From contig DIAY01000284.1 of assembly GCA_002414905.1 (NCBI GenBank), positions 354 to 64,353 of the forward strand: a stretch of 64,000 bases of DNA, given 5' to 3'. The notes beneath the pieces are model-generated. The model was not told the origin of the DNA, did not search any database, and was given only the letters and a program-made list of their open reading frames with translations. Within the stretch, counting starts at the first letter, position 1. Each line of letters opens with the position of its first letter. Both the position numbers and the translations under genes were made by a program. This DNA comes from Holophagales bacterium UBA5066 (GTDB taxonomy: Bacteria; Acidobacteriota; Thermoanaerobaculia; UBA5066). This document shows, in pieces, positions 2,019 to 44,894 of this stretch.

Positions 2019-2042
2019 GTCGACCAGGCCCCGACCGCGCGC

Positions 2043-2762
2043 ATGGCCAAGGACAAGATTTCCCGGAAAGACCTGAAAGAAAACGAGCTCGAGCACGCCA
2101 TCATCGGGGCACGCGACTACGTCGTCATGCACGAGGCGACGGCGAAGAAGTGGACGATTCTCGGCGTCGGCGCCGTCGTCCTCGTCGGCCTCGTCTGGGG
2201 CGGACTCGCTCTGCGAGGGCGGAGGCTCGACACGCGCCTTTCGGCGGCGCTCTCGGTCTTCGACGCCCCGCTCGTCGCAGACGGGGCGGGAGCCGCCCCG
2301 GGAGTGACGGTCTACAAGGATGCCGACGAGAGGCTCGAGGCGGCGAAGAAGCAACTGCGCGAGCTGGCCACCGACGCGCCCGGCTCGAGGCCGGGGCAGG
2401 CGGCCCGTACGATGCTCCTCGCGCTTGAAGGAGGGCCGACGCCCCCCGCGTCGCTCCTCGACGGCGCGCGCGACCTGGCCAAGCGGGACCCGGGCTCGAT
2501 CGCTTCGGGCGTCGCGGCCCTCGCCTACCTCGAGGCCGAGGCGGCCGCCGGGCGGCGGAAGGAGGCGATCAGCTCGGCGAAAGCCTACCTCGACGCGGCG
2601 AACCCGCCCCTCCCGAAGGACGTCATCCTCTTCACGATCGCCCGCTTCTACGAGATGGACGGGCAGCTGGCGGACGCGAAGTCGAGCTACCAGCGCGTCG
2701 TCTCCGATTACCCCGATTCGCCGATGCGATTCGAGGCGCAGCAAAAATCACAGGGGCTTTGA
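2043..2762 (+). CDS. Membrane-anchored TPR-like protein (YfgM/UPF0070-like architecture)
   Basis: Short cytoplasmic N-terminus, one TM helix (WTILGVGAVVLVGLVWGGLAL), then a helical repeat region ending ...ARFYEMDGQLADAKSSYQRVVSDYPDSP. Confidence 0.45.
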   Translation: MAKDKISRKDLKENELEHAIIGARDYVVMHEATAKKWTILGVGAVVLVGLVWGGLALRGRRLDTRLSAALSVFDAPLVADGAGAAPGVTVYKDADERLEAAKKQLRELATDAPGSRPGQAARTMLLALEGGPTPPASLLDGARDLAKRDPGSIASGVAALAYLEAEAAAGRRKEAISSAKAYLDAANPPLPKDVILFTIARFYEMDGQLADAKSSYQRVVSDYPDSPMRFEAQQKSQGL

Positions 2763-2772
2763 GGCGTTCGGG

Positions 2773-3939: not shown

Positions 3940-4133
3940 TCGGACGAGGCCGGAAAGCCTCTTCTCGGGTATCCTTCCCCGATCGCTTCGCACCAGACTC
4001 TCCGGGCGCTCGCCGCCGACTTCGCCTCCCGGGATCGGACCGGGACACAGGAGCCCGCGCGGTGACGTTCCCGGGAGAGTGCGTCAGCGGGGCGATGCCG
4101 CACGAATTCTGACCGCGCCTCTAGGAGGAAGTT

Positions 4134-5420
4134 TTGGACCGTTTTACCGGCTTCATCGGGCTCGCCGTCATCCTCCTCGCCTGCTACGCCCTCTCCCATG
4201 ACAGGAAGCGGATCCGCTGGGCTACGATCGTCTGGGGAGTCATTCTCCAGTTCGCGCTCGGCTGGTTGGTGATCTCCTGGAAGATGGGAGCCAGGGCGCT
4301 CAAGGCGTTCTCGGACGGCATCACCGGGGCCATCGCCTTTTCCGACAAGGGAGCCGAGTTCGTCTTCGGCTGGCTGTCGGACCCGGCGATCGGAGGGCAG
4401 ATCGGAGCCAGGACAGGCATCGACTTCTCGCCCTTCATCTTCGCGTTCAAGGTGATGCCGATCGTCATCTTCATCGCCTCGTTCTTCACGATCCTCTACT
4501 ACCTCGGGGTCATGCAGAGGGTCGTGCAGGTCTTCGCGGTCGTGATGACGAAGCTGCTGAGGATCTCCGGCGCCGAGTCGCTGGCCGTGTCGGCGAACAT
4601 CTTCATCGGGCAGACGGAGGCGCCGATCATCATCGCGCCGTACATCCCGAAGATGACGATGTCCGAGCTCATGACGATGATGACGGGCGGGATGGCCCAC
4701 ATCTCCGGTGCGGTCCTGCTCGCCTACGCGGCGATGGGGATTCCCGCGGAATACCTCATCACCGCCTCCGTCATGGCTGCCCCGGCGACGATCGTCGTCG
4801 CCAAGCTCCTCCGCCCCGAGGTGGAGGAGCCGGCGACGGCGGGCGACGTCCACGTGAAGATCGAGAAGGAGCACGCCAACGTCATCGAGGCCGCTGCCTC
4901 CGGCGCCTCGCAAGGGATGTCCCTGGCGATCAACATCGTCGGAATGCTCATCGCCTTCATCGCCCTCGTTTCCCTGTTCAACGGTCTCCTCGGGTGGGTT
5001 GGCACCTACATCGGGTTCCCGGCGGCCGGCCCCGGAGTCGACCCGGCGACGACTCTCTCCGTTCAGTGGCTCTTCTCGAAGCTGCTCTGGCCGCTCGCGT
5101 GGGTGATGGGAGTGCCCTCCGTCGACTGCTCGAAGGTCGCCCGCCTCATCGGCTTCAAGACGGTGATCAACGAGTTCGTCGCCTACGCGGAGATGACGAA
5201 GATTCCGCTGACCGAGTGGACGACGAAGGGACGGCTCATCGCGTCCTTCGCGCTCTGCGGTTTCGCGAACTTCTCCTCGATCGGTATCCAGATCGGAGGC
5301 ATCGGGGGTCTCGCCCCGGGGCGCAAGGGCGACATCGCCCGCCTCGGACTCTGGGCCCTGCTCGCCGGGTCCCTCGCGACGTTCATGAGCGCCACGATTG
5401 CCGGCATCCTCCTCGGCTGA
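4134..5420 (+). CDS. nupC: NupC/CNT-family concentrative nucleoside transporter
   Basis: GGAGG sits 5 nt upstream of TTG 4134. Polytopic membrane protein with NupC N-terminal and C-terminal blocks (GFIGLAVILLACYALS, FIGQTEAPIIIAPYI, GFANFSSIGIQIGGIG). Confidence 0.85.
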   Translation: MDRFTGFIGLAVILLACYALSHDRKRIRWATIVWGVILQFALGWLVISWKMGARALKAFSDGITGAIAFSDKGAEFVFGWLSDPAIGGQIGARTGIDFSPFIFAFKVMPIVIFIASFFTILYYLGVMQRVVQVFAVVMTKLLRISGAESLAVSANIFIGQTEAPIIIAPYIPKMTMSELMTMMTGGMAHISGAVLLAYAAMGIPAEYLITASVMAAPATIVVAKLLRPEVEEPATAGDVHVKIEKEHANVIEAAASGASQGMSLAINIVGMLIAFIALVSLFNGLLGWVGTYIGFPAAGPGVDPATTLSVQWLFSKLLWPLAWVMGVPSVDCSKVARLIGFKTVINEFVAYAEMTKIPLTEWTTKGRLIASFALCGFANFSSIGIQIGGIGGLAPGRKGDIARLGLWALLAGSLATFMSATIAGILLG

Positions 5421-5437
5421 AGAGAAGGAGACAAGAG

Positions 5438-6400
5438 ATGGACTCTCGCTTTACCGAGACCGTCGAATTCCTCCGGGCCCGGATTCCCGTCCCGCCCGTC
5501 GTCGGCGTCATCCTCGGCTCGGGCCTCGGCGATTTCGCCGCGGCCGTCGAGGACCGTCTCGAGATCCCCTACGCGCAGATCCCCGGTTTCCCGGCCTCGG
5601 CCGTCGTCGGCCACGCCGGAACGCTCGTCGCCGGAACGCTCGAGGGGGTTCCGATCGTCGTCCTCTCGGGGCGGATCCACTACTACGAGGGGCATCCGAT
5701 GTCGGCCGTCATCACGCCGGCGCGCGTCCTCGGCCTCCTCGGCTGCCGCGACGTCGTGGTGACGAACGCGGCCGGCGGCATCGACACGTCGTTCTCCGCG
5801 GGCGACCTGATGCTCATCACCGACCACATCAACCTGTTCGGAACGAACCCGCTCATCGGGTCGAACGACGATCTGTTCGGCGCCCGCTTCCCTGACATGT
5901 CCGACGCCTACCGCTCCGACCTGAGGACTCTGGCGAAGGCCGCGGCACGGCGAGTCCGCGTGCCGCTGAAGGAAGGCGTCTATGTCGGGGTCACCGGGCC
6001 ATCGTACGAGACGCCGGCCGAGATCCGCGCTTTCCGGACGCTCGGGGCGCACGCCGTCGGGATGTCCACCGTTCCAGAAGTGATTGCGCTCAGTCACATG
6101 GGCGTCGGCGTCGTCGGCATCTCCTGCATCACGAACATGGCCGCAGGGGTCCTGAAGAAGCCCCTGCGTCACGACGAAGTCCTCGAGACGACCCGGCGCG
6201 TGAAGGACCGCTTCGTGAAGCTTCTGACCGCCCTCGTCGTCGCGATGGGCGAGGGGCGCTCGCCCGACCGGCTCGTCGTCGTGCCGTCGAGGAAGGCACC
6301 GGCTTCGAAGACGAAGGCCGGAAAAAAGGTGAGGGCCGGCACGAGTGTGGCCGCCCGGCGCGGGGTGCGCTCGAAAGCGGCTCCACGCGGGAGGAAGTGA
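5438..6400 (+). CDS. punA: Purine nucleoside phosphorylase (trimeric PNP/MTAP family) with a ~45-aa basic C-terminal tail
   Basis: ATG 5438 follows AGAAGGAGA. Sequence is VGVILGSGLGDFA...FPASAVVGHAGTLVAGTLEGVPIVVLSGRIHYYEGH...VVTNAAGGI...GPSYETPAEIRAFRTLGAHAVGMSTVPEV. The tail is SRKAPASKTKAGKKVRAGTSVAARRGVRSKAAPRGRK. Confidence 0.9.
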   Translation: MDSRFTETVEFLRARIPVPPVVGVILGSGLGDFAAAVEDRLEIPYAQIPGFPASAVVGHAGTLVAGTLEGVPIVVLSGRIHYYEGHPMSAVITPARVLGLLGCRDVVVTNAAGGIDTSFSAGDLMLITDHINLFGTNPLIGSNDDLFGARFPDMSDAYRSDLRTLAKAAARRVRVPLKEGVYVGVTGPSYETPAEIRAFRTLGAHAVGMSTVPEVIALSHMGVGVVGISCITNMAAGVLKKPLRHDEVLETTRRVKDRFVKLLTALVVAMGEGRSPDRLVVVPSRKAPASKTKAGKKVRAGTSVAARRGVRSKAAPRGRK

Positions 6401-6404
6401 CGCC

Positions 6405-6809
6405 GTGGCCGTCAGGAATCTCACCGCGGCCGAGCGTGACACCCTCGTCGCCGCTGCCACCGTAGCCCGCGAGAATGCTGCCGCACCCTACTCGCACTTC
6501 CACGTCGGCGCGGCGCTCCTGGCCGAGGACGGCCGCGTCTTCCAGGGGTGCAACGTCGAGTCGGCCAGCTACGGCCTGACGAATTGCGCCGAGCGGACCG
6601 CGGTTTTCAAGGCGATATCCGAGGGAGCGAGAGGCTTCCGGGCGGTGGCCGTCGTGACGGGTGCCGACGAGCCGACGTCGCCCTGCGGAGCGTGCCGACA
6701 GGTCCTCTGGGACCAGTGCCGCGACATCGCCGTCGTCATGGCGACGACCGGAGGCCGGCTCGAGGAGACGACCCTGGCGACGCTCCTCCCGCGAGCCTTC
6801 GAGCTGTGA
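6405..6809 (+). CDS. cdd: Cytidine deaminase
   Basis: APYSHFHVGAALLAEDGRVFQGCNVESASYGLTNCAERTAVF and PCGACRQVL match the CAE...PCGxCRQ zinc motifs. The start is set at GTG 6405, just after the PNP stop, and is approximate. Confidence 0.85.
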   Translation: MAVRNLTAAERDTLVAAATVARENAAAPYSHFHVGAALLAEDGRVFQGCNVESASYGLTNCAERTAVFKAISEGARGFRAVAVVTGADEPTSPCGACRQVLWDQCRDIAVVMATTGGRLEETTLATLLPRAFEL

Positions 6810-6817
6810 GGGGCAGA

Positions 6818-8254
6818 GTGTTGCGCGCCGCCCCGTTCCTCGCGGCCGCGCTCCTGGCCCTTCCGGCCGCCGGCACCCCGCCCGCAAAGCAGGCGGCCGG
6901 CCACGCGAAGAAAGCCCCGTGCGACCTCGTGGTCGTGGCGGGGGCCGCGCTCCCGATGGACGCCGCGTTCACCGTGCGAGGCGCGACGGCTGTCGCGATT
7001 CGCGGCGGGGAGATCGTCGCCCTCGGTGACCCCGCCACGATCGATGCAGCGTATCTGCCGAAACAGCGGATCGCCCGGCCGGGCGGCGTCCTCCTTCCGG
7101 GCTTCGTCAACACCCACACGCATGCCGCGATGAACCTCCTTCGCGGCCTTTCGAACGACCAGCCGCTCATGGACTGGTTGCAGAAGTTCATTTTTCCCGC
7201 CGAGGCGAAGAACGTCTCGCCGGAGTTCGTACGGGCGGGGACGGACCTGGCCTGCCTGGAGATGATCCGGGGCGGGACGACGACGTTCGCCGACATGTAC
7301 TACTACGAGTCGGACGTCGCCTCCTCGGTGGAGAAGGCCGGCCTGCGCGGCGTTCTCGGCGAGACGTGGATCGACTTCCCGGTACCGGGGCATGCGAACC
7401 TGGCGGAGACGAAAGTCGTCACGCGGGCTTTCCTCGAGAAGTGGAAGGGACACCCGCGCATCACGGCGGCCATCGCCCCTCACGCCCCCTACACATGCAG
7501 CCGCGAGACGCTCCAGGCGGCCCGGGCGCTCGCCGACGAGTACGGCGCACCGCTCCTGACGCACGTGTCGGAGACCCGGGACGAGCAGAAGCAGATCTTT
7601 GAGAAGTATGGCAAGAGCTCGACCGCCTGGCTCGACGAGATCGGCTTCCTCGGGCCCCGTCTCTTGGTCGCTCACGGCGTCTGGCTGACACCCGACGATC
7701 TGAAGCTTCTCGTCGAGCGGCACGTCAGCCTTTCACACAACCCCGAGTCGAACATGAAGCTCGGCTCGGGCATCGCACCCGTCGTCGCCGCGCGTGAGGC
7801 GGGCGTCGTCGTTGCGCTCGGGACCGACGGCGTCGCCGGCTCGAACAATGACCTCGACATGTTCGATGCGATGGACTTTGCCGGCAAGCTCGCGAAGGTC
7901 TCGGCCCTCGATCCGACGCCGCTCCCCGCCCCCGAGCTTCTCCGGATGGCGACGATCGACGGCGCGAAGGCTCTGGGCCTCGACCGCCTCGTCGGTTCGC
8001 TCGAGCCCGGCAAGCGGGCGGACCTGATCGTCGTCGAGCTCGAGAACACCCACGTCCAGCCCGTGTTCGACCTCCCCTCCACCATCGTCTATGCCTCCAG
8101 GGGGGGCGACGTCTCGCTCTCTGTCGTCGACGGAAAGATCCTGTGGGACGGGAAGAGCGTCCTCACCCTCGACGAGGCGAAGGTCCTCGCCGCGGCGAAG
8201 GAGTGGCGGGGGAAAATCCTGAAGTCGCTCGAGAAGAGCGGAGAGAAGAAATGA
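6818..8254 (+). CDS. Amidohydrolase of the MtaD/guanine-deaminase/chlorohydrolase group (COG0402-like) with a signal-peptide-like N-terminus
   Basis: GTG 6818 is in frame with track ORF 6548..8254. N-terminus is VLRAAPFLAAALLALPAAGTPPAKQ. Core is LLPGFVNTHTHAAMNLLRGLSNDQPLMDWL...GGTTTFADMYY...LLTHVSET...VAHGVWL...LGTDGVAGSNNDLDMF. Confidence 0.8.
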   Translation: MLRAAPFLAAALLALPAAGTPPAKQAAGHAKKAPCDLVVVAGAALPMDAAFTVRGATAVAIRGGEIVALGDPATIDAAYLPKQRIARPGGVLLPGFVNTHTHAAMNLLRGLSNDQPLMDWLQKFIFPAEAKNVSPEFVRAGTDLACLEMIRGGTTTFADMYYYESDVASSVEKAGLRGVLGETWIDFPVPGHANLAETKVVTRAFLEKWKGHPRITAAIAPHAPYTCSRETLQAARALADEYGAPLLTHVSETRDEQKQIFEKYGKSSTAWLDEIGFLGPRLLVAHGVWLTPDDLKLLVERHVSLSHNPESNMKLGSGIAPVVAAREAGVVVALGTDGVAGSNNDLDMFDAMDFAGKLAKVSALDPTPLPAPELLRMATIDGAKALGLDRLVGSLEPGKRADLIVVELENTHVQPVFDLPSTIVYASRGGDVSLSVVDGKILWDGKSVLTLDEAKVLAAAKEWRGKILKSLEKSGEKK

Positions 8255-9561
8255 GCCTCATCGTAAGAACGATCGTCAAGAAGCGCGACGGCGGGGAGCT
8301 GTCGGACGGGGAGATTCAGGACTTCGTCACCGGGGTGACGAACCGCACGGTCACCGACGAGCAGGCGGCGGCGCTGCTGATGGCGATCTGCTGCCGGGGG
8401 ATGACGACGGCCGAGACGGCGGCGCTCACCTTCGCCATGATGAACTCCGGCGAGACCTGGGACCTGACCTCTCACGGTTTCGTCGGGGACAAGCATTCAA
8501 CCGGCGGGGTCGGCGACAAGGCGACCCTCGTCCTGGCTCCGCTCGTCGCCGCCTGCGGCGTGAAGACCGGAATGATGTCGGGGCGGGGCCTCGGGCACAC
8601 CGGTGGAACCCTCGACAAGCTGGAGGCGATTCCCGGGTTCGTCACAGGGCAGTCGCGCGAGGCGTTTGACCGGCTCCTCGAGACGGTCGGCTGCGCGCTC
8701 ATCGCAGCAACCGGGACCGTCGCACCCGCCGACCGGCGGCTCTACGCGCTTCGGGACGTGACGGGTACGGTCGAGTCGATTCCCCTCATCACCGCGTCGA
8801 TCCTCTCGAAGAAGCTCGCGACCGGAGCCCACGCCACGGTCTTCGACGTGAAGACCGGCAACGGCGCCTTCATGCAGAAGCCGGAGGACGCCCACGTCCT
8901 CGGGCGCGCCCTCGTCGACACGACCCGGGCGACCGGCCGGAAGGCGAGCGGCTACGTCACCGCGATGGATCGGCCCGTCGGAGTGGCCGTCGGGAACGCC
9001 AACGAGGTCGAGGAGTCGATCCTGCTTCTTCGCGGCGACGGGCCTGCGGATCTGCGGGAGAACGTCCTCCTCCTCGGCTCCGACCTTCTCGTGGCGGCCG
9101 GTGTGGCGGGATCGTCGAAGGAAGCCCGCCGGAGGCTCAACGCCGCCCTCCAGGACGGGACCGCCCTCGAGACGTTCGCCCGCGTCATCGCCGCGCAGGG
9201 CGGCAACCCGGCGGTCTGCGACGACCTCTCGCTCCTCCCTCGGCCCGTCGCCAGGCACGACGTCGCGGCGGCAGCCGCCGGGACAGTCCGGAGCGTGGCG
9301 ACGCGCGAGCTGGGACTCCTCTCCATCGAGATCGGCTGCGGTCGGGCCCGCAAGGACGACGTGGTCGATCCGGCCTCGGGATTCCGGGTGCTGCGGAAGA
9401 CGGGGGACGTCGTTTCCGCCGGAGAGCCGCTCCTTGCCGTCGAGCTCGGACCGCAGACGACGCTTCGGCCCGGCTTCCTCGAGCGTGTGGCGGCCTGCTT
9501 CGACATCGGCGCAGCCGAGGGAGCCCCGGCGCCTCTCCCGTTCGTCGTCGAGACGCTGTAG
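8251..9561 (+). CDS. deoA: Thymidine/pyrimidine-nucleoside phosphorylase
   Basis: The ATG overlaps the preceding stop (ATGA). Sequence is IVKKRDGGELSDGEIQDFV...DEQAAALLMAI...GDKHSTGGVGDKATLVLAPLVAACGVKTGMMSGRGLGHTGGTLDKLEAIPGF. Confidence 0.9.
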   Translation: MSLIVRTIVKKRDGGELSDGEIQDFVTGVTNRTVTDEQAAALLMAICCRGMTTAETAALTFAMMNSGETWDLTSHGFVGDKHSTGGVGDKATLVLAPLVAACGVKTGMMSGRGLGHTGGTLDKLEAIPGFVTGQSREAFDRLLETVGCALIAATGTVAPADRRLYALRDVTGTVESIPLITASILSKKLATGAHATVFDVKTGNGAFMQKPEDAHVLGRALVDTTRATGRKASGYVTAMDRPVGVAVGNANEVEESILLLRGDGPADLRENVLLLGSDLLVAAGVAGSSKEARRRLNAALQDGTALETFARVIAAQGGNPAVCDDLSLLPRPVARHDVAAAAAGTVRSVATRELGLLSIEIGCGRARKDDVVDPASGFRVLRKTGDVVSAGEPLLAVELGPQTTLRPGFLERVAACFDIGAAEGAPAPLPFVVETL

Positions 9562-9574
9562 GGGGCGGTTGACC

Positions 9575-9600
9575 CGCCGGCGGCCGTTCGGCCGCCGGCG
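9575..9600. terminator. Perfect 12-bp GC hairpin between convergent deoA and the cNMP-binding gene (bidirectional terminator candidate)
   Basis: CGCCGGCGGCCG-TT-CGGCCGCCGGCG. No U-tract on either side. Confidence 0.5.
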
Positions 9601-9607
9601 AAGCGAC

Positions 9608-10633
9608 TCAGAAGGGGGAGGTCCCCCGCGAGGGGCCTGAAGGGCCGTGGCCCGTCCGGATCTGAACCTCATCGACACTCCCGAAGCGCGCCTCGCAGAA
9701 GTGCTTCAGGATCGTCAGGACGTTCGGCTGGCGCTCGGTAATGGCGTCGAGCGAGGACCGGTCGAGGGCGAGGAGCTCGCACGACGTCGCCGCCGTGATC
9801 GTGGCGCTGCGAGGCTTTCCGGTGAGAATCGAGACCTCGCCGAAGAAGGCCCCCTCGTACATCTCGCGGACCTTGTGATAGTGACCGTCAGGGTCCTTCA
9901 CGAAGGCCTTGACCGTGCCGGTCGTCAGAACGAAGAGGCTGTCGCCGGGAGCACCCTCGGCCACGATGACGTCGCCCGCTTCGTAGGTCAGGAGCTCGAG
10001 CCCCTTGATGACCTCGACGAGCTCCTCGCTCGAGAAGTCGCTGAAGAGAGGGCTCGCCACCATCCCCTGGGCCGCCTCTTCGCCGATGGGATGCAGACTC
10101 CGCGGGGCCGTCTCGGAGACGGTTTCCGCGGGAGCATCCTCCTCGGCGTCGAAATCGACGACGAATCGGGACGTGCCGGAATCGTGAAGGTTGCGGGAGG
10201 GCACCGGACCGGGTGGAGGCTCCAGTACGGAGACCGGCGTGGGAGCGGTCTCGAGCTCGGCCCGGCGACGCATCGCGCCGGCGCGGAGGTTCTGCCGCAG
10301 GGACGACTCGGCGTCCTTCACCTTGACGAGCGATGCGAGCTTCTCCTCGACCTTTGTGAGGGAGGGATCGAGGCGTTGAACCTTCTTCAGGACCGCGATC
10401 GACTTGCCGACGAAGCCCGAGGTGGCGTACTCGTCGGCGAGCTTCCAGAGGAGCTCGACCGCTTCATACACCTTTCCGTCCAGAGCCAGGACGTCGGCGA
10501 GCTGCTGTCTGACGGATGTGTTTGCCGGGTCCTTCGCGAGCTGGCCGCGAAGAACCTTTGCCGCACGGGTGAAATTCCGTTTCGAGATGAGCTCGGCGAC
10601 GTCATCGCCGCCGGAAAGCCACGAGAAGGCCAT
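9608..10633 (-). CDS. Cyclic-nucleotide-binding domain protein with an N-terminal TPR-like helical region
   Basis: The C-terminal CAP_ED is YEAGDVIVAEGAPGDSLFVLTTGTVKAF...FFGEVSILTGKPRSATITAATSCELLAL. The N-terminal part is TPR-like. The start is taken at ATG 10633 (MAFSWL); an upstream ATG at 10681 is possible. Confidence 0.75.
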   Translation of the reverse strand: MAFSWLSGGDDVAELISKRNFTRAAKVLRGQLAKDPANTSVRQQLADVLALDGKVYEAVELLWKLADEYATSGFVGKSIAVLKKVQRLDPSLTKVEEKLASLVKVKDAESSLRQNLRAGAMRRRAELETAPTPVSVLEPPPGPVPSRNLHDSGTSRFVVDFDAEEDAPAETVSETAPRSLHPIGEEAAQGMVASPLFSDFSSEELVEVIKGLELLTYEAGDVIVAEGAPGDSLFVLTTGTVKAFVKDPDGHYHKVREMYEGAFFGEVSILTGKPRSATITAATSCELLALDRSSLDAITERQPNVLTILKHFCEARFGSVDEVQIRTGHGPSGPSRGTSPF

Positions 10634-10737: not shown

Positions 10738-11106
10738 ATGCCGAAGATCCTGGTCGTCGACGACGACGAAATGAACCGCGACATGCTGTCCCGCCGCCTC
10801 CTTCGGAAGGGGTTCGAGGTGGTTCTTGCGGTCAACGGAGCCGAGGCCATCGACAAGGCTCTCTCCGACCGCCCCGAGCTGATCCTCATGGACCTCTCGA
10901 TGCCGGTCCTCGACGGCTACGAGGCGACGCGCCGGCTGAAGGCGGAGGCGATGACTTCCAGTATCCCGATCATCGGCCTCTCGGCGCACGCGATGGTGGG
11001 CGATCGGGAGAAGGCGCTTGCGGCGGGGTGCGACGACTACGACACCAAACCCGTCGAGCTGCCGCGTCTCCTCGGAAAGGTCGACGCGTTCCTCTCTCCC
11101 GGGTGA
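10738..11106 (+). CDS. Single-domain response regulator (REC only)
   Basis: MPKILVVDDDEMNRDMLSRRLLRKGFEVVLAVNG...LILMDLSMPVLDGYEATRRLK...IPIIGLSAHAM...DYDTKPVE. Confidence 0.85.
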   Translation: MPKILVVDDDEMNRDMLSRRLLRKGFEVVLAVNGAEAIDKALSDRPELILMDLSMPVLDGYEATRRLKAEAMTSSIPIIGLSAHAMVGDREKALAAGCDDYDTKPVELPRLLGKVDAFLSPG

Positions 11107-11145: not shown

Positions 11146-13191
11146 ATGACTGCTGAGCGTCCCGTGAAGAGGAACCTTCCCGCCGCCGCCCGCGGTCCGT
11201 CCTTCCTCCCGACGACCGTCGAGGAGATCCGGGCCCGCGGCTGGGACGCCGTGGACGTCGTCTTCGTGACGGGCGACGCCTACGTCGACCACCCGAGCTT
11301 CGCCATGGCCGTCCTCGGCCGCGTTCTCGAGTCCCGCGGCTTCCGCGTGGCGATGCTGTCCCAGCCGGACTGGCGCTCGGCCGGAGCGTGGCACGCTCTC
11401 GGACGCCCGCGGCTCTTCTACGCCGTGTCGGCCGGAAACATGGACTCGATGATCAACCACTACACCGCGAACAGGAAGCGGCGCAACGACGACGCCTACT
11501 CTCCCGGCGGACGGATCGGCCTCCGCCCGGACCGGCCGACCCCGGTCTACGCACAGCGCTGCCGCGAGGCGTTCCCCGGGGTGCCCGTCGTCATCGGAGG
11601 TATCGAGGCGTCACTGCGGCGTCTCGCGCATTTCGACTACTGGTCCGGGACGGTGCGGCCTTCGATGCTCGTCCCGTCGAAGGCCGACCTCCTCGCATTC
11701 GGGAAGGGCGAGGAGACGATCGTCGCGATCGCCGAACGCCTGCGCGCCGGCGAGAGCGTGCGGGACCTGCGCGACCTGCGCGGGGTCGCGTACCTCCTCG
11801 GGATGAAGGAGGGGCTGCCCGAGCCGCCCCCGTCTTCATGCTGGAAGACGCTCGAGCTCCCGGGCTTCGACGAGGTGTCCACCGACAAGCTCGCGTTCGC
11901 GAAGATGACCCGCAGCTTCCACCAGGAGACGAACCCCTTCAACGCTCGCCGTCTCGTCCAGGCGCAGGGCGACCGCAAGGCGGTCTTCAACCCGCCCTGC
12001 CTGCCGCTGGACGAGGCGCGGATGGACGCCATCTACGACCTGCCGTATACCCGCCGCCCTCATCCGGGATACGGCGAGCCGATCCCGGCGTTCGAGATGA
12101 TCCGCGACTCGATCGAGATCATGCGGGGCTGCTTCGGAGGGTGCACCTTCTGCAGCATCACGATGCACGAGGGGCGCGTCGTCCAGAGCCGCAGCAAGCG
12201 GTCGATCCTCGCGGAGGTCGAGACGGTCGCCAGCGCTCCGGACTTCAAGGGGACGATCAGCGACCTCGGCGGCCCCACGGCGAACATGTACCGGATGCGG
12301 TGCACCAGCCCGGCGGTCGAAGCGGTCTGTCGCCGGCTGTCGTGCATCCACCCGAAGATCTGCGTCCTGCTCGGTACGGACCACGGTCCGACGATCGACC
12401 TGATGCGCTCGGCCCGCGCCGTCGAGGGGGTGAAGCGGGTCAATATCGCGAGCGGCATCCGGATGGACCTCGCGAACCTCGACGACGCGTACGTCGAGGA
12501 GCTCGCTGCGCACCACGTCGGCGGACACCTGAAGGTTGCGCCCGAGCACCGCAGCGACGGGGTCCTCGACCTCATGAGGAAGCCTTCGTCCGCGTCGTTT
12601 ACGACCTTTGCTGAGAAGTTCGAGCTCGCGAGCGCGAAGGCGGGCAAGGAGCAGTACCTCGTCCCCTACTTCATCGCGAGCCACCCGGGCTCCGGCGTGG
12701 CCGAGATGATCGAGCTCGCCGTCTTCCTGAAGGCTCACGGTTACAAGCCGCGACAGGTGCAGGACTTCATTCCTGCACCGATGGACGTCGCGACCTGCAT
12801 GTACTGGACGGGCCTCGACCCGCAGACGCTGGAGCCGGTAAATACCATCTCGAGGCTGAACGACCGCAAGCTTCAGAGGGCTTTGATGCAGTTTTTCAAG
12901 CCCGAGAACTGGTTCGCCGTCCACAGCGCGCTGACGGAGGCGGGGAGGAGCGACCTCATCGGCGGCGGGCCACAGTGCCTCATTCCGCAGAACCCGCCTC
13001 GGGAGGCGGTCGAAGCGCGACGCAGGGAGGCCCGCGAGAGCACCTACGTCCACGCGGAGGATGCGGGGACGTCGAGGTCGGTGGCGCCGGCGAACGTGGC
13101 CTCCGAAGTGCCGGGTGCCGCCAGGAAACCGCGAGGTGGCGCGGGCTATCGGCCGGGCCGGGCGAGTCACGGGCGTCGACACCCGGGCTGA
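11146..13191 (+). CDS. ygiQ: YgiQ-family (UPF0313) radical SAM protein
   Basis: [43 protein letters not shown]...[20 protein letters not shown] (CxxxCxxC-type cluster), with a long conserved C-terminus. Confidence 0.85.
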
Positions 13192-13213
13192 GCCGTCCGG
13201 CGGCGGAGGAGCC

Positions 13214-15145
13214 TCAGCGGCTCCCGGCGAGGACCGTTTCCAGGAAGGATCGGATCTCCGGGGGGAGCGACGTGAACCTGAGCCCGAAGCCCTTCGTGGT
13301 GAGCTTCGGGGTCGACACCTTGCCGTAGACCTCCCCGGGAATCGTGCTGCCGTCGCGGGCGACGAAACGAAGGCGCAGGTTTCGGAAGGCTTCCGGCCGT
13401 TCCCGCGCCTCGATCTCGGCTTCCTTCATCGAGAGCCGCACGAGGAGCCCCTCGGCCTCGGGTCCGTCCACGCGCTGCCCGGAAATCGTCGCGAACCGGA
13501 CGGGAAGCGGCCCGCGAAGAGCGACGAGCGCCTCTTCGCGTGCGGGGAGGAAGAGGTTGAAATCTCCGGCGACGCCGCGGACGTCCCACGCGGAGACCGG
13601 CTTCTCGAATCCCTTCATCTGCACGACGACCTCGGTCCCGACGGAGAGGTCGGCGCCTCCCTCGCGGCGGGTGCGGTCGCTGACGAGGATCTGTCCGCCG
13701 ACCGTGTACGACTCGATCCGCGCCGTCAGGTTCACCGGACTCCCGACGACACCGTATTTGGCCCTCTTGTCGGAGCCGATGTTGCCGACGACGACCTCGC
13801 CCGTGTGAAGAGCGATTCCCATCTCGACGACGGGGAGCCCTTCCCGCCGGTTGAACTCGTTCACGCGCTCCATCGCCCGCTGCATCTCGACGGCGCAGGC
13901 GATCGCGCGGAGCGTGTCGTCCTCGCGACCCACGGGCGCTCCGAAGATGGCGAGGATCGCGTCGCCGATGAACTCGTCGATCGTCCCCTGGAAGGAGAGG
14001 AGGACGTCGACCATCGTCCCGAGGTAGTTGTTGAGGAGCCTCACCACGCGGTCGGGAGGGATCCGGTCGGCCAGCTGGGTGAAGCCCCTCAGGTCGGACA
14101 TGAGGAGCGTCACCTTGCGCGTCTCGCCTCCGAGCTTGAGCCCCTCCGGCGTCTGGAGAAGGCTCTCGACGACCTCGTTCGAGACGTAGCGGCCGAACGT
14201 CTCGAAGATGAAGCGATTGCGGACCTCCAGGTCCCTGGCGAGCGTGCTGATCCTGGCCTTGGCTCGCGAAAGCGTGAGCTGGGTCGCGACCCGGGCCAGG
14301 ACGACGGGGAAGTCGAGCGGTTTCGTGACGTAGTCGTTCGCGCCGAGACGCAACGCCGTCACGACGTCGCTCGAATCGTCCCGCGCGGTCGCCATGATGA
14401 CGGGGAGGTCGGCCGCAGCGTGCCGTGGCCTGAGGTCCCGCAGGACGTCGAGACCGCTCATCCCGGGCATGACGACGTCGAGGAGGACGAGGTCGAACGG
14501 AGTCTCCTCGAGAAGGCGGAGGGCTTCGGGTCCGCTTTCGGCCACGGCGATCGTGAAGCCGTGGCTCCTGAGACGGCGTGCGAGCATGTCGCGGTTCTCG
14601 GCATTGTCGTCCACGACGAGGAGGTGCGCCGGCTCGACGGGCTCGGACGGGGCCAGGTCGAAGTCGCCGCGCCGGATCGGGCCCGTCCGCTCCGCCGGGT
14701 TCTCGTCGGGAATCGCAGGCCCCACGGCGGGGGCCGGCGGGGGCGGCGGACCGGGGTGCGCCGCTGGCGGCTCATCGCCGGTCCCGGTCGTGGGGACGGA
14801 ATCGTCCTGCGAGGCTTCCGCCGAGTGGCTGCCGGCATCCGGCAGCAGCCTGTCGGGAAGTCCGTCGACCATCCCGAGCAGCCGCCGCGCCGCCGCCTGG
14901 ATCTTTCCGAGGTCTTCGGCCCAGCCGGTCTGGCCGGAGGCGATGGCGTCCTCCTCCAGCATTTCGGCGTAGCCGAGAATCTGGTGGATCGGCGTCCGCA
15001 TGTCGTGCCTCAGACCCGAGAGAAGCTCGCCCGGAACGAAACGGTTGCCCTCACCGAGGTTCGTCGGTGGCTCCTGGGCCGCGAACGCCCTCTCCAACAG
15101 GCTCTCGTCGGTCATCGGGTCGAGTGTATCGCCCGTACCCGGCAC
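13214..15145 (-). CDS. Multidomain signalling protein: HisKA/DHp stub (no ATPase domain), REC, class III nucleotidyl cyclase, PilZ-like C-terminal domain
   Basis: H-box is LSGLRHDMRTPIHQILGYAEML. A Pro-rich linker follows. REC is LLVVDDNAENRDML...LVLLDVVMPGMSG...DYVTKP. Cyclase is VTLLMSDLRGFT...GTIDEFIGDAILAIFGAP...GIALHTGEVVVGNIGS...KYGVVGSPVNLTARIE. The C-terminus ...GKVSTPKLTTKGFGLRFTSLPPEIRSFLETVL resembles PilZ-type domains. The start could be 15145 or 15115. Confidence 0.8.
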   Translation of the reverse strand: MPGTGDTLDPMTDESLLERAFAAQEPPTNLGEGNRFVPGELLSGLRHDMRTPIHQILGYAEMLEEDAIASGQTGWAEDLGKIQAAARRLLGMVDGLPDRLLPDAGSHSAEASQDDSVPTTGTGDEPPAAHPGPPPPPAPAVGPAIPDENPAERTGPIRRGDFDLAPSEPVEPAHLLVVDDNAENRDMLARRLRSHGFTIAVAESGPEALRLLEETPFDLVLLDVVMPGMSGLDVLRDLRPRHAAADLPVIMATARDDSSDVVTALRLGANDYVTKPLDFPVVLARVATQLTLSRAKARISTLARDLEVRNRFIFETFGRYVSNEVVESLLQTPEGLKLGGETRKVTLLMSDLRGFTQLADRIPPDRVVRLLNNYLGTMVDVLLSFQGTIDEFIGDAILAIFGAPVGREDDTLRAIACAVEMQRAMERVNEFNRREGLPVVEMGIALHTGEVVVGNIGSDKRAKYGVVGSPVNLTARIESYTVGGQILVSDRTRREGGADLSVGTEVVVQMKGFEKPVSAWDVRGVAGDFNLFLPAREEALVALRGPLPVRFATISGQRVDGPEAEGLLVRLSMKEAEIEARERPEAFRNLRLRFVARDGSTIPGEVYGKVSTPKLTTKGFGLRFTSLPPEIRSFLETVLAGSR

Positions 15146-15197
15146 GATCCCAGAGCGATATACTGGCCCGAGAGAGATTCATGGGGAAGACAGGGCC

Positions 15198-16094
15198 GTG
15201 AACGAGCTTTACAGTGAGCTTTTGCCGCTCGGACGAGAGGGAGTGGTGGAGGCAGGCGAGGAACTCTGGCAGGAGGGTGCCAAGGGTGACTGTGTCGTCC
15301 TGCTCATGGAGGGGACGTTCGATATCCTTCAGTCCTCCCCCTCGGGCGAGCCCGTCGTACTCCGGGTCGCCAGAGCGGGCGAAGTCCTCGGAGAGCTGGC
15401 CTGCATCGACGGGGGTGCCCGGTCGGCGGGTCTGCGCGCGGCCACCAAGTGCCGGATCCGGACGATCGCTGCCATCGAGTTTCTGGCCTTCATCCGCCAC
15501 CGTTCGGACCTTCTGCAAGCGCTCTTCCTGATCGAGTCCCAGAGGATCCGGAGCCTCTCCCGGATGGTGACGCAGAACCAGCACCGCGCCATTACCGACC
15601 GGCTCACGTCTCTTTACAATTACGGCTTCTTCATCGAGCGGCTGGACCTCGAGCTCGAGCGCGCCGTCCAGATGAAGGACGCCGTGAGCATCGTCCTGTT
15701 CGATATCGACAATTTCAAGGCGTACAACGACACCCATGGCCATCCGGCCGGGAACGTCGTTCTCGTCCAGGTCTCGGACCTCCTTCGGCGAACGGCCCGG
15801 CGTGGTGACATCACGGCCCGTTTCGGGGGGGAGGAGTTCGTGATCCTCCTCTACGGTGCCTCGCGCAAGGAAGCGCAGCAGGTGGCCGAGACGGCGCGCG
15901 CGCGCGTGGAATCGACGGACTTTGCCGGCGGAGAGACCCAGCCGCTCGGGCGTCTCACGATCAGCGGCGGCGTGGCCTGCTTCCCGGGAGACGCCCGGAG
16001 CGCGACCGATCTCCTGAAAGTTGCCGACGTGAGGCTCTACAAGGCCAAGGGAAACGGACGCAACCGGATCGACGCGGGGGGCGCCGCTTCATAG
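15198..16094 (+). CDS. cNMP-binding domain - GGDEF diguanylate cyclase
   Basis: GTG 15198 is in frame with track ORF 15000..16094. CAP_ED is GEELWQEGAKGDCVVLLMEG...LGELACIDGGARSAGLRAATKCRI. GGDEF is DRLTSLYNYGFF...VLFDIDNFKAYNDTHGHPAGN...RRGDITARFGGEEFVILL, with an intact GGEEF A-site and an RxxD I-site 5 residues upstream. Confidence 0.85.
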   Translation: MNELYSELLPLGREGVVEAGEELWQEGAKGDCVVLLMEGTFDILQSSPSGEPVVLRVARAGEVLGELACIDGGARSAGLRAATKCRIRTIAAIEFLAFIRHRSDLLQALFLIESQRIRSLSRMVTQNQHRAITDRLTSLYNYGFFIERLDLELERAVQMKDAVSIVLFDIDNFKAYNDTHGHPAGNVVLVQVSDLLRRTARRGDITARFGGEEFVILLYGASRKEAQQVAETARARVESTDFAGGETQPLGRLTISGGVACFPGDARSATDLLKVADVRLYKAKGNGRNRIDAGGAAS

Positions 16095-16136
16095 AGGCCG
16101 AACCGGCCCGCGAGACGCTGAGGGTATCCTCCGCGA

Positions 16137-18080
16137 GTGCTCTACCGGCTCGATCGCGTCCACAAGGGATTCGGCACCAAAACCGTCCTCGCGGGCGCCA
16201 CGTGGCAGCACGACCCGGGCCGGGTCGCCGGCCTCGTCGGCCGGAACGGAGCGGGGAAGTCGACGCTGCTTCGAATCGTCCAGGGGCTCGTCGAGCCCGA
16301 CGCGGGGCGTGTGATCCGGGCCGGAGGAACGACCTTCGCCTCGCTCGAGCAGGCCGTCGAGCCGGAGGGAGACGAGCCGCTGCGCGAGTTCGTCGCCCGG
16401 GCCCAGGAGGGCCTGCGGGGTCTCGAGGCGGAGATGCGCCGTCTCGAGGAAGCGATCGCCGCCCTCTCCTCCTCCGGGACCGCAGGAGCGGTCGAACCGC
16501 TCCTGGCCGAGCACGACGCCGCACGCGAACGTTTCGAGCGAAACGGCGGGTATGAGGCCGACGCGCGCGTCGAGCGCATTCTCCTGGGCGTCGGCCTTGC
16601 GCGGGAGACCTGGGACCGCCCCGTCGGCGAGCTCTCGGGGGGGCAGAAGCATCGCGCGCAGATGGCGCGACTGCTGCTGGGCGACGCCTCCGTGCTCCTG
16701 CTCGACGAGCCGACGAACCACCTGGACCTGGCAGGGCTCGAGTTCCTCGAGACCTGGCTCGTGGAGAGGAAGGGTACGGTCGCGCAGGCGGCGCTCGTCG
16801 TCTCGCACGACCGGCAGTTCCTGAATTCCGTCGCCGACCGGATCGTGGAAGTTACGCACGGGGTCCTCGAGGATTATCCGGGCGACTACGACGCCTACCG
16901 GAAGCTCAAGGCCGAGCGGGACCGGGTTCGGGCGAAGGCCGCCGAGGAGCAGAAGAAGCTCGTCGAGCGGACCGAGGATTTCATCCGGAGAAACATCGCG
17001 GGGCAGAAGACGAAGCAGGCCCAGGCCCGGCGGAAGATGCTCGCGAAGCTGGAACGCGTGGAGGCGCCCCGGGAGGACGCCAACGAAGTGACCTTCCGGT
17101 TCGAGGAGGCGCGGTCCTCGGGTGACCGCGTCCTCGAGCTCAGGGGGCTGGTTCCGGGCTACGCCGAGACGGGACCGCTCCTCTCGCCCGTCTCCTTTCT
17201 CCTTCGCCGCGGCGAGCGGGTCGCGCTCTGGGGGCCGAACGGCTGCGGAAAGACGACGCTCCTGAAGACCATCGCCCGTCTCCTCCCGCCGCTCGGCGGG
17301 AGCGCCGTCCCGGGAACGGGGGTCCTGGTCGGCTACTACGACCAGGAGATGCGCGACCTTCCGCCCTCCTGGACGGTCCTCGACGTCGTCCGCGACCTCG
17401 ATCCGTCCCTCCTCGATGGCGAGGCACGGGACTTCCTGGCCCTCTTCGACTTCCGCGGAGACGAGGTGGAGCAGAGGGTCGGGACCCTCTCGGGTGGCGA
17501 GAAGGGCCGCCTGTCCCTGGCTCGTATCGTCTTCAGCGGCGCGAACCTCCTCCTGCTCGACGAACCGACGAACCATCTCGACCTCGACTCGCGAGAGCGT
17601 CTCGAGGAGGCTCTTCTGGAGTTCGAAGGGACGATCGTTTTCGTGTCGCACGACCGCTGGTTCGTCGACCGGATCGCGACCCACGTCCTTGAGATCCAGG
17701 GGCGCGAGGCGTCGCTCTGGCCCGGGGGCTTCACCGAGCTCTGGCGGCGGCAGGCGGCGGAGAGAGGCGGGGCAGAGCCTCCGCCGAAGGAGGTTTCAGC
17801 CGGGTCGGGACCGAGGGCTGCCCGTCGGCCGGACCGACAGGCGGACCGGATGCGCGCGAAGGCCCGTCGCGAGGTGGAGGCTCTCGAGGAGGAGGTCTTC
17901 CGCCTCGAGGAGCGGGTCCGGGAGATCGACGACGCCCTCGCCGATCCCGCCACCTGGAGGGACGGCCCGCGCACCCGCGAGCTGACCCTTTCCCGTGACG
18001 ACGCGAGAAAGACTCTCGACGCGCGGTACGCGACCTGGGAAGAGGCGGTACGAAAGCAGGAACTGGAGATCCCGGCGTGA
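16137..18080 (+). CDS. ABC-F family ATPase (two ABC domains, no TM domain)
   Basis: Two Walker A sites (GRNGAGKSTL, GPNGCGKTTL) and two signatures (LSGGQKHR, LSGGEKGR). A charged linker and a coiled C-terminus. Confidence 0.85.
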   Translation: MLYRLDRVHKGFGTKTVLAGATWQHDPGRVAGLVGRNGAGKSTLLRIVQGLVEPDAGRVIRAGGTTFASLEQAVEPEGDEPLREFVARAQEGLRGLEAEMRRLEEAIAALSSSGTAGAVEPLLAEHDAARERFERNGGYEADARVERILLGVGLARETWDRPVGELSGGQKHRAQMARLLLGDASVLLLDEPTNHLDLAGLEFLETWLVERKGTVAQAALVVSHDRQFLNSVADRIVEVTHGVLEDYPGDYDAYRKLKAERDRVRAKAAEEQKKLVERTEDFIRRNIAGQKTKQAQARRKMLAKLERVEAPREDANEVTFRFEEARSSGDRVLELRGLVPGYAETGPLLSPVSFLLRRGERVALWGPNGCGKTTLLKTIARLLPPLGGSAVPGTGVLVGYYDQEMRDLPPSWTVLDVVRDLDPSLLDGEARDFLALFDFRGDEVEQRVGTLSGGEKGRLSLARIVFSGANLLLLDEPTNHLDLDSRERLEEALLEFEGTIVFVSHDRWFVDRIATHVLEIQGREASLWPGGFTELWRRQAAERGGAEPPPKEVSAGSGPRAARRPDRQADRMRAKARREVEALEEEVFRLEERVREIDDALADPATWRDGPRTRELTLSRDDARKTLDARYATWEEAVRKQELEIPA

Positions 18081-20405: not shown

Positions 20406-21395
20406 GTGGCGGACCCCAGGGTCCGCTACGCCCGGGTGGACCGGCCGGAGGACGAGCCGCCGGCGGTGAGGAGCCTCCTCGACGTCGCCGTTCTGGACAT
20501 GCACCACGGCTTCGCGAACCTCGGGCACGCCTCGGTCGTCGAGCGGCTGATGAGGATCGCCCTGGAAGAGAGGCGGCGTGTCGGGGAAGGCGCACCGGGC
20601 GTTCGCATCGTCTCTTACGACGTGAGACTCGGCGGCGCGGTACCGTCCTCGGCGTCGCGTTTCGCCCTCGTCGTCGGCACGGGTGGCCCGGGTTCGCTGG
20701 ACCCGCGCGAGAACGACGGCGTGTCGCCCTACGCACAGGGGATCCGCGAGGACCCGTCGTGGGAGGCGCCGCTCTGGCGTTTCTTCGACGCCGTCCGCGG
20801 GAACCCGTCCTGCGCGCTCCTCGGCATCTGTCACACCTTCGGGCTTCTCGCCCGCTGGGCAGAATTCGGCGAAGCCGTCCCGCGCTCTGCGCAGAAGGGC
20901 AAGAGCGCGGGAGTCGTCACGAACCTTCTGACCGATGCGGCGCGGCAGCATGCATGGTTTGGAGGGCTCTACCACGCGAGCTCGGGCGGGCGGATCCAGG
21001 TTCTCGACAGCCGGCTTTTCGACATCCTCCCGACGGGGAAGGCCGGTCCCGACGTCCTCGCGTACGAGGCGACCAACGACGGCGTGCGTGGAGAGGCGAT
21101 CACGATGGCCGAGGTGGAACGCTTCGCCGACGGGCATCCCCGGATCTGGGCAGTGAACCACCACCCGGAGATCGGCGATGCCGGAGAGCAGAGGGCCCGG
21201 CTCCTCAGGATCGCCGCCTCCCGCCAGCTCAGTGAGGCGTGGCTCGGCGAGAGGCTTCAGGCGCTCGAGGCGTGGACGGCGTCCGAGGCCGCCGAGAGAC
21301 GGCTCCAGATCACCACGTCGTACACGTTCGAGGAGCCGGTGCGTACGATCCTGTCGCGGGCGCTTGGTGCCCGGCGCGATGCCCGGCCTTCCTGA
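20406..21395 (+). CDS. Class I glutamine amidotransferase-like protein (specific function unknown)
   Basis: Nucleophile elbow LLGICHTFG and downstream NHHPE (His-Glu) are typical of GATase1. The remainder is not assignable. Confidence 0.5.
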   Translation: MADPRVRYARVDRPEDEPPAVRSLLDVAVLDMHHGFANLGHASVVERLMRIALEERRRVGEGAPGVRIVSYDVRLGGAVPSSASRFALVVGTGGPGSLDPRENDGVSPYAQGIREDPSWEAPLWRFFDAVRGNPSCALLGICHTFGLLARWAEFGEAVPRSAQKGKSAGVVTNLLTDAARQHAWFGGLYHASSGGRIQVLDSRLFDILPTGKAGPDVLAYEATNDGVRGEAITMAEVERFADGHPRIWAVNHHPEIGDAGEQRARLLRIAASRQLSEAWLGERLQALEAWTASEAAERRLQITTSYTFEEPVRTILSRALGARRDARPS

Positions 21396-34354: not shown

Positions 34355-34509
34355 GCCAGAGCGGATGTTACCCCGTCGGCGGGCACTCTGCGGAATTCCG
34401 TACCGGTCTCTGCTGCGCGACAGCAGGAGATCGGTGTCGGGGGTCACGGTGCGGTGGGGAGGCCTGAATCTGGAGTAGTCTTTGTTCGTCCGTAACACGG
34501 GAGGTGACA

Positions 34510-42601: not shown

Positions 42602-42659
42602 GCACCACCTCCCTGGGAGATATCAGTCTAGGCCAGCGCGGGCCGGTTCGGAGCGGCCC

Positions 42660-43859: not shown

Positions 43860-43882
43860 ATTTCAGCCTCCGGGAGTCGGGG

Positions 43883-44827: not shown

Positions 44828-44894
44828 GTGAGTCTCCTCCTGTCGGCGCAGCCGGCGGCCGCGCGCTGTTTCCGGCGAAGAGAGCCGGTCCTGC

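Follow-up and report, generated by a model that had tools for sequence, protein, structure and literature searches.

Does phosphorylation control the synthesis of cyclic GMP (cGMP) in an acidobacterium, and does that cGMP in turn control cyclic di-GMP (c-di-GMP)? The question is raised by a locus of Holophagales bacterium UBA5066 (Acidobacteriota; Thermoanaerobaculia) that lies within a 64,000-nucleotide stretch of contig DIAY01000284.1 (GenBank assembly GCA_002414905.1), hereafter called the window. A class III nucleotide cyclase gene is found there in divergent orientation to a gene whose product joins a cyclic nucleotide-binding domain (CAP_ED) to a diguanylate cyclase domain (GGDEF). An earlier reading of the bare sequence, referred to below as the original prediction, had proposed that the cyclase is a cGMP generator gated by its receiver (REC) domain and that its product activates the diguanylate cyclase (DGC). 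Our analysis places the cyclase with the guanylate cyclase Cya2 and makes cGMP its likely main product. Together with the conserved neighbours of the gene, this suggests that the two divergent genes may form a relay from cGMP to c-di-GMP under two-component control. The two genes and the region between them are laid out as follows.

13214..15145, minus strand: HisKA-REC-cyclase-PilZ-like protein, 643 residues as the longest open reading frame (ORF), from a GTG (ORF list and Pfam)
15116..15197, no strand: region between the divergent genes, 82 bp when measured from the conserved ATG of the cyclase gene, 52 bp (15146-15197) from the GTG of its longest ORF
15198..16094, plus strand: CAP_ED-GGDEF protein, 298 residues, with Pfam cNMP_binding at residues 17-100 and GGDEF at residues 131-290

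Most homologues of the cyclase begin at a position equivalent to an ATG at 15115, which gives a product of 633 residues; the database protein P0001, also of 633 residues, is identical to the cyclase product of the window. The intergenic distance of 52 bp first claimed holds for the longest ORF, and the conserved start extends it to 82 bp. In the related contig L081 the equivalent gap is 88 bp. A promoter and terminator scan of positions 13000-16300 found none, and no sigma-70-like consensus site was detected there. The GC content across the window is 65-72%. Residue numbers below refer to the 643-residue form unless stated otherwise. Three features had escaped the original prediction: a HisKA domain at the N-terminus, a PilZ-like domain at the C-terminus, and the replacement of Cya2 Tyr572 by Ala475.

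Kinship of the cyclase core to Cya2

The catalytic core and the three positions that bear on its substrate were located by comparison with Cya2 (Sll0646) of Synechocystis PCC 6803.

13535..14140, minus strand: class III cyclase catalytic core of the Cya2 type, residues 336-537 (phmmer and Foldseek against PDB entry 2w01)
13973..13975, minus strand: Glu391, first base-specifying residue, equivalent to Cya2 Glu488; Lys in adenylate cyclases
13751..13753, minus strand: Gly465, second base-specifying residue, equivalent to Cya2 Gly562; Asp or Thr in adenylate cyclases
13721..13723, minus strand: Ala475, third determinant position, equivalent to Cya2 Tyr572; NLTAR here, NLTYR in Cya2

The Pfam match to Guanylate_cyc spans residues 342-502 (E 3.2e-21). 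In a phmmer search the core aligned with Cya2 (2w01) over 202 residues without a gap (E 3e-65). An AlphaFold2 (AF2) model of the cyclase monomer was matched to the same structure by Foldseek with a template-modelling (TM) score of 0.94 and a root-mean-square deviation of 2.0 Å, at 54% identity. A constant offset of 97 relates the two proteins, so that D351, R353, E391, D395, G465, N472, R476 and K511 correspond to Cya2 D448, R450, E488, D492, G562, N569, R573 and K608, counterparts that are tabulated in PMC6005667.

We then considered whether the residues named by the original prediction occupy the positions claimed for them. Glu391 (GAG, in GTIDEFIGDA) and Gly465 (GGT, in KYGVVGSPVN) were both verified in the sequence, as were the catalytic residues D351 (LLMSDLRGF), D395 (FIGDA) and N472/R476 (PVNLTARIE). 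In the alignment with Cya2 and adenylate cyclases, Glu391 and Gly465 share columns with Cya2 E488 and G562, which bears out the earlier statement that Cya2 has the same pair. The motifs of Cya2 in these columns are GTIDEFMGD and KYGVVG, with GTIDKF in the version of the enzyme engineered into an adenylate cyclase (6fht). Lys and Thr occupy the two columns in CyaB (3r5g) and CyaC (1wc0), adenylate cyclases that the same search found. The earlier reading had allowed that a structural alignment might move the pair out of the purine pocket; the alignment and the superposition of the model on 2w01 both keep it inside. Because the two residues are placed by homology, through the ungapped alignment with Cya2, and not by motif resemblance, we regard them as the specificity residues. 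Cya2 is strongly specific for GTP through its unusual Glu488/Gly562 pair (review PMC6005667), and its E488K mutation switches it to an adenylate cyclase (PMC5995499, PMC6005667).

Conservation was evaluated in the window protein plus its best 120 homologues (121 sequences), taken from the more than 7,600 proteins that pass E 1e-20, many of which probably share only the REC or the cyclase domain. Glu391 and Gly465 are invariant (121/121), and D351, D395, N472, R476, R353 and K511 are each conserved in 120-121 of the 121. As judged from its sequence, then, the cyclase is catalytically complete, with the metal-binding Asp residues, the transition-state Asn and Arg and the phosphate-binding Arg and Lys all in place. 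Glu also occupies the first position in 54 of 63 readable cyclase matches of the loci that were fetched, including all those of at least 47% identity. The third position is more variable: Gly in 49 sequences, Ala in 46 (the window protein among them), Ser in 25 and Phe in one. All close relatives have Ala, the cyanobacterial relatives mostly Tyr and others Gly, Ala or Ser.

In summary, Cya2 (2w01, and the engineered fusion 6fht) and the window protein have in common the Glu/Gly pair, the supporting Lys, the metal Asp residues, the Asn/Arg pair, an FGRY motif and a C-terminal extension. They differ at Tyr572, which is Ala475 here, and in their sensor modules: Cya2 has a CHASE2 domain and a membrane anchor (PMC5995499), whereas the window protein is soluble and carries HisKA, a linker and REC.

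All of the best 120 homologues have the HisKA-REC-cyclase architecture together with Glu/Gly. By their source names they come from Holophagales/Thermoanaerobaculia at 79-91% identity and from Vicinamibacteria/Entotheonellia at about 52%. The protein is therefore not the singleton that the term "new multidomain variant" had implied; it belongs to a large, uncharacterised family. The Cya2-type cyclases more broadly occur in Acidobacteriota and other phyla, fused to REC, PAS, GAF, CHASE2 and other sensors. No NCBIfam equivalog matched the window cyclase, and our literature search found no paper describing a HisKA-REC-cyclase-PilZ-like architecture. Each element is known, and it is the combination and the family that are uncharacterised; the result could have been predicted from homology and does not define a new category.

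Control modules and the C-terminal barrel

The remainder of the cyclase protein consists of an N-terminal control module and a C-terminal domain.

14861..15028, minus strand: HisKA/DHp (dimerisation and histidine phosphotransfer) helical hairpin with H-box RHDMRTP (Pfam HisKA, residues 40-95, E 1.9e-10)
14636..14848, minus strand: Pro-rich linker between HisKA and REC, about 70 residues, predicted disordered
14288..14620, minus strand: REC domain (Pfam Response_reg, residues 176-286, E 1.7e-29)
14141..14287, minus strand: long helix continuing REC alpha5, and cyclase transducer element (CTE) with FGRY at residues 316-319
13217..13525, minus strand: C-terminal six-stranded beta-barrel and terminal helix of PilZ-like fold, residues 541-643 (about 105 residues)

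The HisKA hairpin was modelled as two long helices with a predicted local distance difference test score (pLDDT) above 90 (AF2). Its His47 (codon 15005-15007) is kept in 118 of 118 aligned homologues. Pfam did not find a HATPase_c domain in the cyclase protein; because it has none, the protein cannot autophosphorylate by itself, and a bona fide histidine kinase was ruled out on this ground. The linker that follows has a pLDDT below 50 (AF2, residues 95-157 in the 633-residue numbering) and is unconserved in the family alignment. The REC domain retains its full quintet, D179, D180, the phospho-acceptor D223 (14477-14479), T253 and K275, each conserved in 120-121 of the 121 sequences. Beyond it, a linker helix of 39 residues (269-307 in the 633-residue numbering, AF2) leads to the FGRY element, which aligns to the CTE of Cya2 in 6fht (on the CTE motif, see PMC5995499).

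HisKA and REC modules upstream of a class III cyclase are also found in CyaC of Spirulina and Anabaena, in Dictyostelium ACR and in the algal 2c-Cyclops, which are histidine kinase-REC-guanylate cyclases (PMC6284317). Those proteins contain a full kinase with HATPase_c and extra sensors (GAF, rhodopsin, transmembrane segments), whereas the window protein has HisKA by itself, its His preserved, with a disordered linker to REC. The products of CyaC and ACR, moreover, are cyclic AMP (cAMP). Spirulina CyaC is switched on when its proximal receiver is phosphorylated, and in ACR the HisKA domain enforces cyclase dimerisation (PMC3009899).

The C-terminal domain gave no Pfam match, PilZ included, even at E 10. 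Modelled separately, it reached a pLDDT of 86 (AF2), and PilZ domains made up nearly all of the top 25 Foldseek matches in the PDB (E from 2e-4, TM 0.5-0.65), including those of Alg44, VCA0042, MotI, BcsA, MapZ and YcgR. By inspection of the sequence and of the family consensus, however, the RxxxR and (D/N)xSxxG motifs were not recognisable (R536-E-E-A-L; R570-L-S-M-K-E). Because these canonical c-di-GMP-binding motifs cannot be recognised, we call the barrel PilZ-like solely in its fold. It thus shares its fold with PilZ receptors such as Alg44, YcgR, BcsA and MapZ and differs from them in the binding motifs and the Pfam match; a canonical PilZ c-di-GMP receptor was ruled out because the binding motifs are absent.

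The barrel has homologues at the C-terminal end of cyanobacterial CHASE2-cyclases (L014, L021, P0267) and, by this sequence relationship, corresponds to the C-terminal extension of Cya2. That extension, of about 118 residues, stimulates the cyclase and is required for high activity (PMC5995499). In a library of 1.84 billion representatives, 357 relatives of the barrel were found at E <=0.001. Ten of them were scanned. In seven the barrel lies behind a Guanylate_cyc domain, and the N-terminal sensors of these seven comprise CHASE2, GAF, PAS, REC, Lactamase_B_2-HisKA-REC and kinase-STAND, one protein having no recognised sensor. Of the remaining three, one carries a FIST domain, and Pfam matched nothing in the other two. 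Most occurrences of the barrel follow a cyclase core of the Cya2 type.

Candidate receptors and the conserved gene cluster

In the divergently transcribed protein, Pfam places cNMP_binding at 15246-15497 (E 1.6e-15) and GGDEF at 15588-16067 (E 2e-41). The GGEEF and RxxD motifs that the original prediction had reported were both confirmed, GGEEF at residue 210 and RRGD, the I-site, at residues 201-204, five residues upstream. Both are nearly invariant in 12 CAP_ED-GGDEF homologues, and the homologous gene calls in L081/L082 are also of 298 residues. By these motifs, the protein has the active-site and I-site signature of an active diguanylate cyclase. The phosphate-binding cassette (PBC) of its CAP_ED domain is intact, with the pattern G-E...R-S-A: GELACIDGGARSA.

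Three further genes lie on the far side of the cyclase gene.

9608..10633, minus strand: TPR-CAP_ED protein, the second cyclic nucleotide-binding protein of the cluster, about 341 residues (Pfam cNMP_binding, E 2e-22, and TPR)
10738..11106, plus strand: single-domain response regulator, 122 residues (Pfam E 5.9e-25), a member of the conserved cluster
11146-13191, plus strand: YgiQ-family radical SAM gene (TIGR03904, E 4e-240), between the REC gene and the cyclase gene

The TPR-CAP_ED protein has also kept its PBC: FGEVSILTGKPRSAT. The order ABC-F, CAP_ED-GGDEF, divergent HisKA-REC-cyclase, REC, TPR-CAP_ED, thymidine phosphorylase is conserved in four related Holophagales/Thermoanaerobaculia contigs, in which the cyclase is 79% (L081/L082), 84% (L090) and 66% (L084) identical to that of the window. 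The single-domain REC protein shares 87% identity with its positional counterparts in L081 and L084, where the identity of the cyclases to that of the window is 66-79%; the REC gene is also present in L090, and the TPR-CAP_ED gene in L081, L084 and L090. The YgiQ gene probably represents an insertion into the signalling cluster of the window, because it is absent between the REC and cyclase genes in L081, L084 and L090. In L084 a gene for a CHASE8-HAMP-HisKA-HATPase_c-REC(-REC) hybrid histidine kinase (8184-10517, minus strand) lies between the REC and TPR-CAP_ED genes, and its product is a candidate upstream kinase.

More distant loci were also inspected. In L004, whose cyclase is 50% identical, a gene encoding a protein that combines two CAP_ED domains with NTE P-loop-like and patatin phospholipase domains (1686-3950, minus strand) lies two genes upstream and possibly specifies another cyclic nucleotide effector linked to this cyclase family. 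Among the matches listed, genes for cyclic nucleotide-binding (CNB) proteins occur in the flanks of 10 of 57 Cya2-like loci and, in the same scan, of 0 of 23 control loci, a difference of borderline significance (p 0.055). In the Vicinamibacteria a Lactamase_B_2 gene (L085, 5093-6004; L091, 4093-5004) overlaps the start of the cyclase gene by 4 bp, and in P0117 and P0296 this domain is fused to the N-terminus of the cyclase. Its product, of metallo-beta-lactamase fold, is a candidate for a partner hydrolase, perhaps a phosphodiesterase; its NCBIfam matches are RNase Z/PhnP-like and weak.

The cluster is situated among genes of nucleoside, purine and pyrimidine catabolism. On one side lie nucleoside genes for a nucleoside transporter, purine nucleoside phosphorylase (PNP), an amidohydrolase and thymidine phosphorylase (window 4134-9561). 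These are syntenic in the relatives, which add a cytidine deaminase there. Further along, positions 38952-57590 encode XdhC, a xanthine dehydrogenase-type molybdoenzyme, a xanthine/uracil permease and dihydropyrimidine dehydrogenase-like, carbamate kinase-like and ornithine transcarbamylase (OTCase)-like proteins. The ORFs at 20406-21395, 34504-36365 and 37391-39001 have a coding-like GC content at third codon positions or are long, and they gave no Pfam match at E <=0.001.

The proposed relay and its alternatives

Taken together, these features suggest the following relay. The cyclase would act as a homodimer. As a class III enzyme of Cya2 descent it would, by analogy with Cya2, prefer GTP through Glu391 and Gly465 and form cGMP. 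Phosphorylation of Asp223 would set its activity, with the signal travelling along the REC-alpha5/linker helix and through the FGRY element into the catalytic dimer, as the architecture and the example of Spirulina CyaC suggest. More speculatively, the kinase-less HisKA hairpin may either hold the dimer together, as HisKA does in ACR, or act in His-phosphotransfer or dephosphorylation at a point between an unlinked (hybrid) kinase, the single-domain REC protein and Asp223. The PilZ-fold barrel, as the equivalent of the Cya2 C-terminal extension, could provide an allosteric site. On the strength of gene linkage and the Xanthomonas precedent, cGMP would then bind the CAP_ED domain of the divergently encoded GGDEF enzyme and alter its DGC output, the enzyme being subject to product inhibition through RxxD. 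The TPR-CAP_ED protein may likewise bind cGMP and constitute a second, non-enzymatic output.

The Xanthomonas campestris pathway that the original prediction had cited is correctly described: XC_0250 is a guanylate cyclase, and XC_0249, a cNMP-binding GGDEF protein, binds cGMP with a Kd of 0.29 µM as against 17.9 µM for cAMP and is stimulated by cGMP in its DGC activity (PMC3770947). Both loci have a cyclase gene adjoining a gene for a cNMP-binding GGDEF protein, and in both a cyclic mononucleotide would control c-di-GMP synthesis. The cyclases are of different kinds. XC_0250 joins a cyclase domain to TPR, has a non-canonical site (Ala150, and Leu157/Ala161 in place of Asn/Arg) and reportedly shows no similarity to other bacterial guanylate cyclases (PMC3770947). 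The window cyclase, compared here with that published description, has the canonical Asn/Arg, lacks TPR, is of the Cya2 type and is predicted to be REC-gated, and its cluster adds a REC gene and a TPR-CAP_ED gene. Because its cyclase is unrelated in type to XC_0250, the locus is an analogue of the Xanthomonas relay and not a member of it.

Several observations weigh against the relay as proposed, and some of them concern the nucleotide itself. The cyclase may be an adenylate cyclase or have dual specificity, in which case cAMP, or cAMP and cGMP together, would control c-di-GMP, as in other cAMP-sensing c-di-GMP enzymes. Ala475 replaces the Tyr that is the third determinant in Cya2, where, according to the account of Rauch et al. 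given in PMC4215837, Tyr572 greatly enhances guanylate cyclase activity and leaves adenylate cyclase activity unaffected. The K101E/D157G mutant of Ma1120, which combines the Glu-Gly pair with a third-site Ala, retained a preference for ATP, and addition of A167Y made it impartial between the substrates (PMC4215837). Ma1120, however, is an engineered adenylate cyclase scaffold and not a natural Glu enzyme. The invariance of Glu at the first position throughout the 121 family sequences, the appearance of adenylate cyclase activity in Cya2 upon the single E488K change (PMC5995499) and the approximately 54% identity of the core to a proven guanylate cyclase all argue for GTP. The sequence comparisons thus favour the view that the cyclase makes mainly cGMP, which we consider likely; we do not rate this higher, despite the invariant Glu, because the third determinant differs and because of the Ma1120 result.

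The receptors are similarly ambiguous. The cGMP versus cAMP preference of either CAP_ED domain cannot be read from sequence. The PBC of the CAP_ED-GGDEF protein carries RSA, as in the cAMP-binding CRP. PDB searches with the single sequence and with a family profile match the CAP_ED domains of PKA, PKG, CRP, Clr and Bd1971 similarly, so that the CAP_ED domains of the locus are as close to cAMP receptors as to cGMP receptors; Bd1971 is an EAL enzyme that we take to be cAMP-sensing. The cNMP structure of XC_0249 (probably 5h5o) was matched at E 2e-6, at a low rank. The determinants of cGMP binding in XC_0249 are F73, E90, H98, N145 and E146, with N145 and E146 in alpha-C (PMC3770947).

In L088, from a metagenome-assembled genome of Planctomycetes, the gene for a CAP_ED-GGDEF homologue (P0237, 51-53% identical; 6001-6921, plus strand) lies 70 bp downstream of that for a GAF-GAF-PAS class III cyclase (3478-5931, plus strand) with the adenylate-type pair Lys/Thr. 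By its sequence this gene pair appears to be a cAMP counterpart of the two-gene logic in the window. Because the cyclase partner in L088 has Lys/Thr, the CAP_ED-GGDEF family is not confined to guanylate cyclase partners. Homologues linked to guanylate cyclases have RSAG or RSAA in the PBC, versus RSAT in those linked to adenylate cyclases, a difference from which no ligand preference can be read. With the evidence from both proteins considered, we judge a relay driven by cAMP, alone or with cGMP, to be unlikely.

A second alternative accepts the enzymes and questions the connection. The cyclase and the CAP_ED-GGDEF protein may be neighbours by descent only, the CAP_ED proteins serving another cyclase or ligand and the cyclase product acting elsewhere. 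The linkage was seen in a single clade, of at least 66% identity, within a syntenic block of housekeeping genes (ABC-F, CinA, GpsA, thymidine phosphorylase), and the Vicinamibacteria sister clade, at 52-58% identity, has no CAP_ED neighbours (L085, L091). Since the linkage is confined to one clade and absent from its sister, shared descent could explain it. Most of the distant CAP_ED-GGDEF homologues also point this way, as three of four at 51-55% identity have no cyclase nearby. On the other hand, the cyclase, the two cNMP receptors and the REC gene have stayed together despite inserts (the radical SAM gene in the window, the hybrid kinase gene in L084), independent Cya2-like loci also carry CNB genes, and the Xanthomonas precedent (PMC3770947) supports a functional pairing. 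Linkage by descent only therefore seems to us quite unlikely.

That the cyclase domain makes some other nucleotide (cCMP, cUMP or another) or is mainly a scaffold is highly improbable: nothing specific speaks for it beyond the inclusion of pyrimidine cyclases among class III folds (Pycsar, PMC10249747), whereas the canonical catalytic set is complete, the purine pocket is identical to that of Cya2, and the neighbours are metabolic, with no defence-island context. A Pycsar-like defence cyclase was ruled out on the metabolic genomic context.

The control steps of the relay have their own difficulty, in that neither a kinase nor a cGMP phosphodiesterase is encoded within the window. Of the original proposal of a REC-gated cGMP generator that drives a DGC, the Cya2 pair, the intact REC domain and the kept linkage stand; the GTP specificity is likely from the comparison with Cya2, and the part that assigns cGMP to the CAP_ED domains could not be deduced. 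For the joint claim, a REC-gated, two-component-controlled relay from cGMP to c-di-GMP, we consider the case for and against to be evenly balanced. An extension of this proposal, a closed circuit in which the PilZ-fold barrel senses c-di-GMP non-canonically, or another nucleotide, and feeds back on cGMP synthesis, is a long shot. Such a circuit would assign a role to the C-terminal extension of Cya2, which is structurally uncharacterised, and would supply the first receptors for Cya2-type cGMP signalling.

To our knowledge, bacterial cGMP signalling has few worked examples, namely Cya2, the guanylate cyclases of Rhodospirillum centenum with CgrA, and XC_0250/XC_0249. Synechocystis has no identified receptor for the cGMP that Cya2 produces (PMC10187061), whereas the window cyclase is linked to two CAP_ED genes whose products are candidate receptors. 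In one clade, then, a Cya2-type cyclase sits beside two candidate receptors. As a lead into bacterial cGMP signalling, an under-explored field, the locus is solid and open to direct tests, and it yields a useful side result on the C-terminal domain of Cya2. If the relay operates as proposed, its proteins would offer clean material with which to probe the roles of the Tyr/Ala third determinant and of the PilZ-like extension. Two-component phosphorylation would be able to drive bacterial cGMP synthesis, and crosstalk from cGMP to c-di-GMP would reach beyond Xanthomonas, into an abundant phylum of soils and sediments.

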